NCBI GenBank assembly: GCA_965219575.1
Contig: OZ244779.1
Span: 172,769 to 236,768, forward strand
Length of the DNA: 64,000 nt
Direction: 5' to 3'
Source of the DNA: Candidatus Oxydemutatoraceae bacterium
Lineage (GTDB): Bacteria; Pseudomonadota; Gammaproteobacteria; Poriferisulfidales; Oxydemutatoraceae
This document shows, piece after piece, positions 54,601 to 60,600 of this stretch. The position numbers were made by a program. Within the stretch, counting starts at the first letter, position 1; each line of letters starts with the position of its first letter.

Positions 54601-57600
54601 TCAGATCAAGGGCAAAATACCTCACAATTTGCCTTATTTTCCTGTTTGAAATATGTGCCCTTCTAAAATGTCTGTTAGGTGTTGTCATTACTAGTTATTT
54701 TATCAAATCGTACTCCCTAAACTAGTCAAGTACCTATTGAAAATAAAATTTGTAAGACACTTGACACTATTTCCATTTTTGATATTTTAGTATGCAAAAT
54801 ATGGAGATGAAATTGAAACACACGACTAAAACAATCAGCATAGCTGAATTACTTAAAATATTTTCTACTGAAACAAAAGCAGTTAGGTAGATTGAAGGTG
54901 TGATTTGGGAAGCAAACCTATCTGTCCTAAATGTAAAAAAATGGAGAAGGTTAAAATATACAAACCTAGAAAGTACAATCATTACTGCAATCGTTTTCGC
55001 AGAGCATTTACGATAAAAACCGATAGCGAAATGAACAGATCGCTACTACCTTTGCAATGCTGGGATATAGCGATTTATTTGGTAGTGACCGCGCGAAAGG
55101 GTATATCGTCTTTACAGCTATCAAAGGAACTAGGTATTACTCAGAAGTCGTTTTGGTTTATGCTTCGGCGTGTCCGTGAGGCAAAAGATTAACTTTATAA
55201 AAAACTGATAAAGTAGTCACCATGTTTGCATTAAAGCCGGACACTAGGCAAAGCCTTTTATTAAATAGGCTTAATGGAAAAGGCAAATATAAGTATTCTA
55301 GGTACAATGGGCTACCATTGCGATATGCTGGTGGTAAGACCCTTGCTGTTGGACACATAATAGAACATCTGCCACCTGATATTACTTCATTAGTATCTCC
55401 GTTTTTTGGTGGTGGAAGTGTTGAAATTGCTTGCGCCAAAGAGCTAGGGTTAAAAGTCAAAGGTTATGATGTTTTCAATATATTAACAAATTACTGGCAA
55501 ATACAACTAAAGAAACCATTAGAACTATATAGCCGCTTGTGCAAATGGAAACCAACAAAGAGTAAATATTCACAAGTAAAGAACAGACTTCGTAAGCATT
55601 GGGACAAGTCACAAAAAATAGAGGACAAAGTATCTTTAGCTGCCCATTATTGGTTTAATCATAATCTATCTTACGGACCTGGTTTTTTAGGTTGGATGTC
55701 AAAAATATACGAAAAAGAAAGCAGATATATTAGGTTGCTTGATAAAGTTAGAAACTTCACTTGTCCCAATCTATCGGTATGTTCGGGGAACTTTAGTAGA
55801 ACTATACCTCAACACATAGATTCGTTCATGTATTGTGACCCCCCTTATTATTTGAATGGTAATAGCAAGATGTTTAAGGGAATATATCCACAAAGAAACT
55901 TCCCTGTTCACCATAACCAATTCAATCATGAACTGTTGCGCGATTTATTATATCAGCATGAGGGCGGGTTTATTCTTTCATATAATGATTGTGAGACGAT
56001 AAGAGACTGGTATTCTGATTTTAATATTATAGAAGTAAAGTGGCAATACACCCTAGGGCAAGGTGAAACAAGGATAGGTAAGAATAGAATAGAGAACGGA
56101 ACAAACAATCATATAAAACATTCACATGAACTCTTGGTGTTGGGATGATGCCCAAACGAAGAGCTATGACCAGCGAACACGCAAGCATGGTAAAAAGAGC
56201 TGGGCATGCAAATGAAGAGCATTTTGCTGAACTAATTGGTGGTCATGTACAAAGAGGGCATCATACAGACAAAAAAGATGTTGCGGATGAACAAGACAGG
56301 TATCACTCAGTAAAAGCTGGGGAGCGGTGGCAGATTTTCTTATACAGTAAAAATCGCCTTAAAACTAACACTATCTTTCAAGGATTAGGGAACATTGCAA
56401 ACATAATGATTGATTGTCTTGATGCATACCCAACAACTTATGATGAATATCTTTCTAATAAAACAGCTGCAAAGCTACGACTTCAGCCACACATGAGAAG
56501 ACTCTTAGAAGAGTTAAACAAACCAAAAATGTTAGCATCATTACTTGCTAAGGCATTATTTGATGGTGGGAATGCCGATTATCTTAGTATATATCCTGGT
56601 CTCGCAAAAGACTTGAAAGAGAAAAAACATTTTCATGTATTCCACAAGAATGAAGTAGTTAACACTTTATGCACTAATGTCTCGCTCCGCAATTCTAAAG
56701 CCAGGCACAGTAAACAAATGGATGATCAAAAAGTAGTGTTTTTTTCATTATTGCATAATAAGCAAATAGGGCAGATTGAGGATAGACATGATAGCAAAAG
56801 CCATTATAAACAAATCAAGTTTAGGTTAGATAGCGAACCTGTATTTGAGATACTAAAATCTAATATCCACCCTAAGAAGAATGTTGAGCCTCAAGCTACA
56901 ACTTATGGATTAGCATGTAAGTGGCTTAAAAGGAACTAAAAACAAAGTGGAAATCGGTAAAACATGATTTACATACTTAAAGTATATAATTCTCGGATAA
57001 ATGAGTGGGGAATTATATAGATAACTTGACAAAGAAATGTTAAATTACATTGATGAAAACTCATAGAACAATCAGATATCGCTTGTATCCAGCGACCTAT
57101 GAAAAGCATCGGCAATTACACGGAACTGCCGGAGCGTGTCGTTATGTTTGGAATCACTTTGTAGCCAAGTTAAAGGATGAATACGAGTATTATGGCGAGA
57201 GCCGGTTTAGCTTTTTCACCCTAGGCAAGCAATTTACGACATTGCGAAAGCATTGCGACCAGTGGTTGCAAGGTTATTCCGCTTATATCGTGAAATCATC
57301 ATTACAACCGATAGAGATAGCATACAAAGGATTTTTCAAGGGCAACAACGGATTGCCGAAGTTTCACGGCAAATATACGCATAGCCCGTCATTCCCAATC
57401 AATTATCAATCGGCAAAACTATCGGGTTGTCACTTGTATATACAGAAGGTAGGCTGGATGAAGTTTGCCGGTGGTGATAGGTATAAAGGTGAGAAGTTTG
57501 TATCGGGTCAAGTCAAGTATGAATGTGGTAATTGGTATGCATATATTTGCTATGAAGTGGAGCTAGCGGACAAATCGCAGATGCTAAAGGAAGTGGGTTT

Positions 57601-60600
57601 GGATAGGAATGTGGGACAGATAGCATTGTCGGACGGGACCATGTATTACCTACCCGACTTACAGCGTAAGGAAGCAAGACGCAAGCGTTATCAGCGAATG
57701 GTTGTTAGACGGGTTAAGGGAAGCAACAGGCGTAAGCTAGCGAAGTATAAATTACAGAAAGCGTATCACGCGGAGCGATTTACGAGGGCGAATTGGTGCC
57801 ATAAAACCAGCAAGCTAATAGCGGACAAATACGACATCGTCTATATGGAAGGACTGAATACAGCAGGCATGACGAAGTCGGCGAAGGGGACGATAGACAG
57901 CCCGGGCAAGAATGTGGGAGCGAAGTCAGGTTTGAACAGAGAGATACTAAAGAGTGGCTGGTATAAACTGGAGCAATGCTTAAGCTACAAAGCATATGTA
58001 GGAAAGGTCAATCCAGCATATACAAGTCAAACCTGCAACAAGTGCAGAAGCGTAGATAAAGCGAACCGCAAAACACAAGCGATATTCAAGTGTCGGCACT
58101 GCGGACACGAGGACAATGCAGATGTAAATGCTGCATTAAACATTTTGGCGGTCGGGAATACCGCAACCGGGCGTGGAGATTGCAGCGTTGGCTGGTCTGT
58201 GAAGCGTCAAAAAGATAGGGTAGCAAGGCGGTCTAATAAATCTGTCAAGTTATCTATATAATTCCCAATGAGTGAACGATACTAATTATGATATTATGGA
58301 ACACCAAAAATACTGTCTGACTTGAGGAGATCGATTATGGGTTTTTTAATGCATTTGTTTTATTTTTTAATATGTAGCGCGCTGATAGCGATGATGTGGT
58401 TCGTATTTCTGTTTTTTAATAATCTAATCGACAAAATGCAAAGAGACTTCGTGCAAGGGTTATTGGGCACCGTGAACACGGTTGTATTATTGGCCGTTGT
58501 CGGCCTCGTTGTCTCGTACTTCGCACTGAGCTTTTTCACCGGCTTATTGTTTGTCATGATCGCAACCTTCTTAATCTACTCGGTCAAAAAAGCAATGACC
58601 GGTTTGACGGGTGCCAAAAGTTAGCGTAAAAATAGTTTATACGCGGGATTATCCGACTCGTCTTGATATTGATAACGAGACTCCCGCATCGCTTTTTTGA
58701 AGTGCGCTATTTTATCGGATGGCACCTGCACACCGACCAGTATACGACCATATTCCGAACCGTGACTTGAAAAATGGAATAGGCTGATATTCAGGCCTTG
58801 GGTGGCAAAATACTCCAAAAATTCCAGCAACGCACCCGGTCTTTCCGGAAATTGAAAACGGCATAACTGCTCGTTTTCTCGCTTATCGTGCAGATGCCCG
58901 CCGACCATGTGTCTTATGTGTAGTTTTGCCATTTCGTTATCCGAGAGATCGACGACTTCATAGCCTCTGCGCTGCAGTGAGGCAATGGTCTCGGGCTTGT
59001 CGCGCTTGAGATTCTCGAACTCCAGGCCGACGAATACTCGGGCTTCGACATTATCGGAATAACGATAGTTAAATTCGGTAAGTTTTCGCTTGCCTATAGT
59101 CCGACAAAAATCGACAAAACTGCCCGGCCGTTCCGGTATCGTCACCGACAATAGCGACTCGGTGCCTTCGCCGATCTCGTAACGTTCCACAACATGCTTG
59201 AGGCGGTCAAAATTGATGTTCGCTCCCGAAGCGATAGCGACCAAAGTTTCGTTGAGACATCGGTACTTGGCGATATAGCGTTTTAAGCCGGCTATGGATA
59301 ACGCACCGGCGGGCTCGAGCAAGGTACGATTTTCGTCAAAATTGTCTTTGATCGCAGCACAGATCTGATCGGTGTTAACCAATATAACTTCGTCGACCAA
59401 CGCTTTTGAGACTCTAAAAGTCTCTTTGCCGATGCATCGCACCGCAGTACCGTCGGAGAATAATCCGACTTTATCGAGCGTGACAGCCTTACCTTGCTGC
59501 AGGGCGGTGTATAAGGTTGCCGCATCATCGGGCTCAACTCCGATGATTTTTGTTTGCGGGCGGAATTTCTTCAAATAAAGCGACACTCCGGCGATCAATC
59601 CGCCGCCGCCGACCGGAACAAAAACGGCATCTATGTGTTCTTTGCATTGTCGATGTATCTCCATGCCGATGCTGCCCTGCCCGGCGATTACTTGCGGATC
59701 GTCGTACGGATGTACGAAAGTGTGGCCGTGCTTTGCAGCGAGTTTGACTGCGTATGCATACGCTTCGTCATAAGTATCTCCGTGCCGCACAATATCCGGT
59801 TTGAACAATGCAACCGCCTTGACCTTAATCATCGGCGTAGTCAGTGGCATAACGATAATTGCTTTGACACCCAATTTTTGGATTGCCAACGCAACACCCT
59901 GCGCATGATTACCCGCCGAGGCGGCGACGATACCCGCCTGCTTCTCTTTATCCGATAATTGAGCGATTTTGTTGTATGCGCCTCGCAGTTTGAACGAGAA
60001 AACCGATTGTTGATCTTCTCGCTTCAAAAAAATGCGCTGTTTGAAGCGCTTTGATAAATAGGGAGCAGCTTGCAGTGCCGTAACGGAAGCTACATCGTAG
60101 ACCTTGCAATTTTCAATTGCCTCAATATAGTCTGTAAATATATCGGTCATGTTTGTTCGGAAATTTTTTAATCATCAAATCGAGTATTATGATGGACAAT
60201 AGTATAATCTAACTGCCGATAATATGCAGTTTCTTAAAGAACAATGTCCGTCGATACGCTTAAAAAAACAGTTGCCGAAGCGGCAATAGATTATGTACAA
60301 GTCGGCGATTTGGTCGGTGTGGGTACGGGGTCGACGGTAGATTATTTCATCGCTACATTGGCGCGCATATCCACCCGTATAGAGGGTGCGGTCGCAAGTT
60401 CAAAAAGAACCGCCGACCGGTTGCAGGCATTCAATATTCCGGTGGTTGATTTGAATAACGCCGGCACTTTGCCGCTTTATGTAGACGGTGCGGATCAAGC
60501 CGATCAAAGCCTGCATCTGATTAAGGGCGGCGGCGGTGCGCTCACCCGTGAGAAAATCATCGCCACGGCAAGTTCCCGCTTTATATGTATCGTGGACGAG

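Follow-up and report, generated by a model that had tools for sequence, protein, structure and literature searches.

A lone tnpB gene with a predicted omega-RNA in an IS1595-type transposon family of Gammaproteobacteria

We analyzed a tnpB gene that is carried alone inside a small transposon, in a 64,000-nucleotide stretch of DNA (hereafter the window) from a Candidatus Oxydemutatoraceae bacterium (contig OZ244779.1, positions 172,769 to 236,768 of the forward strand). The element occupies window positions 57008-58266 (1259 bp), is bounded by perfect 24-bp terminal inverted repeats (TIRs), and holds an intact tnpB as its sole gene. We conclude with high confidence that it is a non-autonomous transposon of the IS1595 type, the only cargo of which is a module of TnpB and its predicted omega-RNA. 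In our best explanation this cassette would be moved in trans, and TnpB together with the omega-RNA would cut alleles from which the element is absent. Taken as a whole, we assign this explanation a probability of roughly 0.8.

The tnpB element, its copies and its ends

The two TIRs (GGGAATTATATAGATAACTTGACA) match each other without a single mismatch, and they are flanked by an exact 8-bp target duplication, AATGAGTG (Table 1). No third match to the repeat was found in the window at up to 3 mismatches, and none of 100 shuffled sequences yielded two matches. A preliminary description of this DNA had claimed this same anatomy, with a start codon that lies 21 bp past the left repeat and a stop codon within the right one, and the exact repeat and duplication matches as well as the position of the reading frame confirm it. 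The description had also stated that tnpA is absent and that there is no room for a left end of the IS605 type. In agreement with this, tnpB is the only gene of the element, a Y1 transposase (PF01797) was not found in the genome from which the window derives (G000; a 2.37-Mb single contig with 47% G+C), and a mere 45 bp lie between the element end and the ATG. The reported match at 11 of 13 positions to the neighbouring element end, GAGAATTATATAC (reverse complement of 56982-56994), was recovered as well.

The protein encoded by the element scored 195.9 bits against the NCBIfam model NF040570 (guided_TnpB; cut-off 100), with 162 bits for the NCBIfam model of IS200/IS605-type TnpB versus 72 bits for that of the IS607 type. 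The Pfam domains HTH_OrfB_IS605, OrfB_IS605 and Cas12f1-like_TNB (a zinc-ribbon TNB domain) were all detected above their gathering scores. Alignment to ISDra2 TnpB (8EXA) showed that the RuvC residues D184, E266 and D357 are kept, together with the zinc-finger cysteines C328/C331/C347/C350 (CxxC...CxxC), so that the acidic trio and zinc finger of the preliminary description are both present; E266 takes the canonical position, ~60 residues ahead of the zinc finger. The ratio of nonsynonymous to synonymous substitution rates (dN/dS) between copies was 0.08-0.19 over the whole gene. This tnpB is under purifying selection and its catalytic residues are intact.

The closest public relatives of G000 are sponge-associated 'Candidatus Porisulfidus' metagenome-assembled genomes (MAGs). 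Besides five full-length copies with a mutual identity of 80-90%, in all of which the tnpB frame is open, G000 holds three short elements that have kept both repeats and the last ~120 nt, and remnants in the form of two partial elements and three solo ends. The 8-bp duplications differ among the G000 copies (AATGAGTG, AAATCATA, AGAAAAAT, and several that match at 7 of 8 positions). In a sister genome (G023), the flanks of which are ~90% identical to those of G000, the sites of two full-length copies (c2 and c4) and of one short element (M1149) are empty, with the 8 bp present once. Two further related genomes, G021 and G022, have an empty M421 site. The sister genome also carries insertions of its own, including a pair of 97.3% identical elements at different sites. 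Furthermore, TnpB relatives with 52-99% identity in at least 10 other gammaproteobacterial MAGs are likewise bounded by repeats, which begin with GGGAATTAT(A/G)TA, and their 8-bp duplications are unrelated in sequence to one another. The element thus belongs to a real mobile family, with many insertion sites in this and related genomes. No IS1595 transposase was found within 2.5 kb of any of the 32 TnpB loci. TnpBs from other gammaproteobacteria with 33-38% identity showed no convincing inverted repeats, and the repeat-bounded clade therefore excludes some TnpBs of moderate similarity.

The question of which transposase moves the cassette was approached through its ends. The 11 IS1595 transposase genes of G000 fall into two types. 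One of them, type A (319 aa), is present in three copies; it has repeats GGGAATTATATACTTAAATACATAA, starting with GGGAATTATATAC, makes 8-bp duplications, and has the outer 12 bp in common with the TnpB element repeat (12/24). Much closer matches were found elsewhere. In G021 the repeat of an autonomous IS1595 (L057), GGGAACTATATACTATTCTGCACA, matches that of the local TnpB elements, GGGAATTATATACAATTCTGCACA, at 22/24 positions, and a further autonomous IS1595 (the L063 type, found in G021 and also in G022) has the repeat GGGAATTATATA[G/C]TTAACTTGACA, which agrees with the repeat studied here at 23/24. Even in G024, a member of the Pseudomonadales, the ends of a TnpB element with a 36%-identical protein (GGGACTTGTGCAGCAAAAGAAGC) match those of a co-resident IS1595 (GGGAATTGTGTAGCAAAAGAAGC) at 21/23. 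The ends of the TnpB cassettes follow the co-resident IS1595 ends genome by genome. Since these ends match elements that encode an IS1595 transposase, mobilization in trans by such a transposase is well supported, the shared ends pointing to the agent.

These results bear on most of what the preliminary description had proposed. Elements with such ends were found at additional sites in G000 and in at least 10 other genomes, and their 8-bp duplications differ; autonomous IS1595 elements that share the ends exist as well (type A over the outer 12 bp, the L063 type, L057 and the one in G024). Empty sites that hold the 8 bp once were recovered for c2, c4 and M1149, not for the window copy itself (see below). 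Close homologs in IS605- or IS607-type ends, which the description had named as evidence to the contrary, were not found at 50% identity or more. The copies, the empty sites and the shared ends together support its reading of the locus as a TnpB in a non-autonomous IS1595-type cassette, with movement in trans as the part that is deduced.

The predicted omega-RNA and the flanking motif

The 3' end of the element appears to encode a structured RNA. We aligned 15 diverse right ends (the last 106-121 nt; alignment A1) and folded them with RNAalifold. The consensus consists of a hairpin (SL1) with the loop (C)GGGAAU, an outer helix GRCGU...GCGUC, and a nested hairpin. In the window copy SL1 lies at 58148-58164 (loop GGGAA, 58154-58158), the nested helices at 58170-58208, and a terminal hairpin at ~58218-58255. 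The predicted partners can pair in 97.7% of the alignment cells, compared to 34-48% when the partners are slid. Compensatory changes on both sides of a pair were found in 34 cells versus 4-9 in the slid controls, and none of 500 shuffles matched the observed score. The terminal hairpin folds in every subfamily (13 representatives), its sequence differing while the fold is kept; the inner part of the right repeat supplies its 3' arm, and the hairpin stops 9-11 nt short of the element end. In addition, the synonymous rate over the RNA region (the last 47 codons) was 0.17-0.5, versus 0.3 to >2 upstream. We conclude that the last ~121 nt correspond to a conserved structured RNA that is omega-RNA-like and supported by covariation, a prediction made from DNA only. 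Folding of a single sequence of 231 nt was uninformative (z = -1.34).

Beyond the terminal hairpin, the single-stranded tail ends in UUCCC (58262-58266), which can pair with the SL1 loop GGGAA in 98.7% of cells. This candidate pseudoknot resembles the guide-adjacent pseudoknot of characterized TnpB RNAs (PMC10711439). The 36%-identical relative has the same RNA architecture, and in it the loop GGGAU faces the tail AAGUCCC, such that an A-U pair has become U-G and pairing is kept. Because the scaffold ends at the element boundary, and given the published TnpB architecture (PMC10711439), we placed the predicted guide directly downstream of that boundary (Table 1).

The three mini-elements without tnpB (G000 1149330-1149527, 396851-397074 and 2197522-2197747) consist of the left repeat, the full ~120-nt scaffold and the right repeat, and two of the three share a distinct 5' segment that is not derived from tnpB. 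By analogy, these RNA-only elements resemble the stand-alone omega-RNAs known from IS200/IS605, and they are candidates for movement by an IS1595 transposase. The elements M396 and M2197 were rejected as clean insertions, as neither is flanked by matching duplications and the corresponding sites of the sister genome hold other sequence.

The ends of the element's subfamily in G000 and the sister genome were then oriented by their inner sequence. The dinucleotide TA directly precedes the duplication (positions -2/-1) at 13 of 15 left ends, i.e. on the side of the tnpB start, versus 2 of 14 right ends (p = 1.5e-4 in a Fisher test). Given that TA has a frequency of 0.064 in the genome, the binomial p is ~3e-14. 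Left ends also have A at -3 (10/15) and A as the first duplicated base (13/15), and three further ends of the mini-element class likewise read TA/A (the slash marking the start of the duplication). TA is present in empty sites as well, and therefore belongs to the target and not to the element. A 72%-identical subfamily in G021 and G022 has a different motif with the same one-sidedness, RG/C, at 5 of 6 left ends and 0 of 5 right ends. Neither motif was seen where the same repeats bound autonomous IS1595 elements or their mini-elements, with TA at 1 of 10 ends. Judged by the test that applies to the IS1341 group, namely insertion 3' of a fixed motif, (A)TA lies 5' of the duplication and is parted from the element by 8 bp. 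A guide that starts at the right boundary would require a target-adjacent motif (TAM) at exactly this position in the uninterrupted allele, which is why we interpret the motif as the signature of a TAM. The flanking motif thus looks like the TAM of TnpB, specific to each subfamily, and its one-sidedness is the one indirect hint at TAM-dependent DNA cleavage by this putative RNA-guided nuclease.

The resulting explanation can be summarized as follows. An IS1595 DDE transposase acting in trans would bind the repeats and move the cassette. Transcription reading through the right end would give rise to an omega-RNA, the guide of which would consist of the right duplication and the adjoining flank. 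TnpB and this RNA would then recognize the empty allele, in which the 8 bp stand between (A)TA and the right flank. A cut in the empty allele would lead either to recopying of the element by recombination or to removal of the cells without it. Such cutting would explain why almost only insertions with the motif on the tnpB-start side persist, and it would also permit spread to the same site in other lineages. We hold a role of TnpB in homing or against loss to be plausible, at about even odds. A more specific version of this idea is that the TnpB module provides a duplication-making bacterial DDE transposon with a drive, based on homing or on prevention of loss, in which the 8 bp and flank serve as guide, the TIR tip serves as a pseudoknot strand, insertions persist only behind a TAM, and the element is copied into the same site across lineages. 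We regard this version as tentative, with a chance somewhat below even.

Table 1. Features of the TnpB element and its flanks (window coordinates).
Feature	Position	Strand	Remarks
Candidate TAM, ATA	56997..56999	+	directly 5' of the left duplication; putative TAM role
Left 8-bp target duplication, AATGAGTG	57000..57007	+	
Left TIR, IS1595-type, tip GGGAATTATATA	57008..57031	+	tip equals type-A IS1595 ends over 12 bp
tnpB, 402 aa	57053..58261	+	ATG at 57053 (alternative start TTG at 57050); TAA at 58259-58261
Predicted omega-RNA scaffold	58146..58266	+	alignment A1, RNAalifold, pair counts, dS drop, mini-elements
Right TIR, holds the tnpB stop codon	58243..58266	-	
Right 8-bp target duplication	58267..58274	+	
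Predicted guide: right duplication plus ~12 nt of flank	58267..58286	+	length assumed from characterized TnpBs

Rival readings and the shared island

Several observations weigh against the explanation outlined above. At the level of the RNA, the omega-RNA, its ends and its guide are predictions from DNA; an Rfam scan of 56900-58400 (E<=1) gave no match, a scan for sigma-70-like promoters found no site, and the candidate pseudoknot is nearly invariant, so that covariation scarcely tests it. With respect to the transposase, G000 has no IS1595 with a repeat match beyond the first 12 bp. The control ends from autonomous IS1595 elements number only ~16, and the targets are AT-rich. The empty site of the window copy (c1) was sought in three other genomes of the genus (G020, G021 and G022), where its flanks are not adjacent, so that an ancestral empty allele was not seen for this copy. 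The full-length copy c5 (G000 1865961-1867219) has no duplication and no TA motif; possibly the right copy of its duplication was deleted, or it was inserted by another route. The c5 site is contiguous, and hence empty, in the sister genome. Two copies have substitutions in the zinc finger with their frames still open, C331R in c3 (G000 871714-872972) and C328F in c4 (267403-268670), whereas all four cysteines are kept in the window copy, c2 and c5. Finally, no two G000 copies are near-identical; together with the lack of an IS1595 that matches further, this means that the family may no longer be able to move in G000.

One rival reading is that the one-sided motif reflects a target preference of the transposase or transpososome, skewed by the differing subterminal sequences, rather than a TAM. 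The AT-rich targets and the small number of control ends are in line with this, as are three type-A IS1595 copies with A/A at the same position. However, both repeats are identical over 24 bp, which leaves little basis for asymmetry in a DDE transpososome, and the scarcity of TA at the control ends described above concerns elements with the very same 24-bp repeat. Moreover, the autonomous IS that matches the RG/C subfamily (L057) has GG/G and TT/A at its ends. We therefore consider a transposase preference unlikely. A variant is that TnpB itself helps to choose the site, by binding the motif with or without RNA and thereby placing the IS1595 transpososome such that the motif directly precedes the 8-bp stagger. 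The exact phase of motif and duplication in 13 of 15 copies would fit this, and selection after insertion would require that nearly all fixed copies have passed through a TnpB-dependent filter. On the other hand, the guide is defined only after insertion, and a nuclease-active TnpB that directs a DDE transposase is without known precedent; we consider this variant very unlikely.

TnpB could also be a passive passenger in an IS1595 subgroup that collects assorted cargo, without any role in spread or retention. Related IS1595 elements do carry other cargo, such as the restriction-modification (R-M) pair at 53935-56994, a methyltransferase with a probable restriction gene, and, in G003, a methyltransferase-HNH gene with further genes. 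What makes this quite unlikely in our view is that the RNA scaffold and the inverted repeat form one structure over the whole range of 36-100% protein identity, that tnpB is under strong purifying selection, that RNA-only mini-elements have been kept, and that the motif depends on orientation and subfamily and does not occur beside autonomous elements that have these ends. An origin by a single insertion of an IS200/IS605 (IS1341-type) TnpB element into an empty miniature inverted-repeat transposable element (MITE), with amplification of the composite thereafter, is suggested by the existence of short elements with the same repeats. These contain fragments of tnpB or all of the 3' RNA region, and we rejected this origin because they are deletion derivatives and not an ancestral empty MITE. 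It is made extremely improbable also by the 45 bp from end to ATG and a reading frame that ends within the right repeat, which leave no room for IS605-type ends, by the missing Y1 transposase in the genome, and by the finding that all relatives of 50% to 99% identity, plus one at 36%, are directly bounded by repeats whose inner part varies yet pairs in the hairpin.

The surroundings of the element add a further observation. Window positions 53860-58304 are ~99.4% identical to the same chromosomal site in the sister genome, compared to ~90% in the flanks; identity drops to ~90% at ~37 bp to the right of the TnpB element and ~70 bp to the left of an IS1595-derived R-M cassette (53935-56994), such that the island spans this cassette and the TnpB element. 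Judging from these identities, the island was recently transferred or converted from one lineage to another. Homing driven by the nuclease is in keeping with this. Ordinary recombination, with transfer linked to the R-M cassette, is an equally good explanation, however, and has to be counted with the points against our explanation given above.

The R-M cassette itself is derived from a type-A-like IS1595, the transposase of which is cut down to its N-terminal Zn-ribbon/helix-turn-helix part (54905-55192). It contains a Dam-like methyltransferase gene (55222-56148) and an overlapping open reading frame (ORF) of 264 aa (56145-56939) that had no family or PDB match and probably encodes a restriction enzyme. 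With its ends AGAATCATATACTTAAGTATGTAAA and, as reverse complement, GAGAATTATATACTTTAAGTATGTAAA, 53935-56994 looks like a non-autonomous R-M transposon. Nested in its left part is a type-B IS1595 (53982-54734; 224-aa transposase at 54014-54688 on the minus strand) with repeats GGTACTTGACTAGTTTAGGG and duplication TATTGAAA, which is absent there in the sister genome and has 8 copies in the genome. Autonomous IS1595 relatives of ~2.4 kb with clean 8-bp duplications were seen as L058, L062 (G003, 1445-3827) and L067 (107-2504); their passengers are a methyltransferase that is frameshifted and has an HNH domain at its C-terminus, along with other ORFs. One more locus, L173 (G024 3015299-3018348), is an IS1595 broken by a second insertion, which encodes a seemingly transposase-like ORF of 460 aa.

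Relation to known systems

TnpBs inside DDE transposons have been reported before. The main text of Altae-Tran et al. (2023, PNAS, PMC10691335) describes six DDE-transposase-associated TnpB branches (DDE-1 to DDE-6), all with inverted terminal repeats, and also solo TnpBs with the same ends that are presumably moved in trans (PMC10691335; summarized in PMC13565253). A 2026 review names IS630, ISL2 and IS1031 as DDE partners of TnpB (main text of PMC13565253). IS1595 is not mentioned as a partner in the main texts of these two papers, and a literature search for TnpB with IS1595, ISXO2 or IS1016 returned nothing relevant. The preliminary description had conveyed a sense of complete novelty, which does not hold, since a 2023 paper had already reported TnpBs in DDE repeats as well as the presumed movement of solo TnpBs in trans (PMC10691335). 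Like the elements in the main text of that paper, ours has TnpB inside symmetrical DDE repeats, and no more than 250 bp separate the 3' end of tnpB from the end of the element. Unlike them, all 32 loci studied here (32/32) are without a co-encoded transposase, and the one-sided motif, the repeat-built hairpin and the RNA-only mini-elements are not described in its main text. The basic arrangement was thus known already. New in this locus are an IS1595 partner with ends that track it, a predicted scaffold built from the repeat, RNA-only mini-elements, one-sided motifs that differ between subfamilies, and sharing of the same site between lineages.

Compared with the IS1595 family, the element has the same GGG-starting inverted repeats, the 8-bp duplications, and the ends of DDE_Tnp_IS1595 elements. 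It differs from autonomous members in that a transposase gene is absent, the cargo is an RNA-guided nuclease, and the predicted RNA makes use of the repeat. With the IS1341 group of IS200/IS605 it has in common the lone tnpB and a 3' omega-RNA (here predicted) that ends at the boundary; its 5' flank also has a short motif, set apart from the element by the 8-bp duplication. In contrast to that group it has TIRs and 8-bp duplications, it lacks hairpin ends, and no Y1 transposase was found in the genome.

The element also resembles Fanzor transposons, as a nuclease of the TnpB family sits in a DDE transposon with TIRs and target-site duplications. Fanzor-carrying eukaryotic TIR transposons were reportedly described by Bao and Jurka in 2013. 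The host of our element is, in contrast, gammaproteobacterial, and the canonical glutamate has not been relocated. In Fanzor systems the TIR forms part of the guide-RNA scaffold (Saito 2023, Yoon 2023; PMC10711439), as is also predicted for our element. The variable 8-bp duplication, in contrast, is predicted here to lie in the guide and not in the scaffold, and the pseudoknot is seemingly retained. The preliminary description had drawn a parallel to the capture of Fanzor by eukaryotic TIR transposons, and this parallel stands as an analogy, not beyond it, given the canonical glutamate and the score for the IS200/IS605-type model.

The wider meaning of these results relates to a question posed in a 2023 paper, namely why the TnpBs of bacteria are apparently linked to IS200/IS605 and IS607, given that eukaryotic Fanzors are carried by many different DDE transposons (PMC10711439). 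Likewise, the 2026 review urges the study of prokaryotic OMEGA systems beyond IS200/IS605 and IS607 (PMC13565253). The family described here is a compact, multi-copy and natural bacterial example of TnpB with a DDE partner. It leads to the predictions that the scaffold reuses the repeat bound by the transposase, that the guide begins with the duplication, and that the motifs of the subfamilies are the TAMs of their nucleases. The family also supplies small nucleases (~400 aa) with predicted short TAMs. If these predictions hold, homing by TnpB would not be limited to elements that excise without a scar, and this bacterial family would be a model for the origin of Fanzor-type associations.

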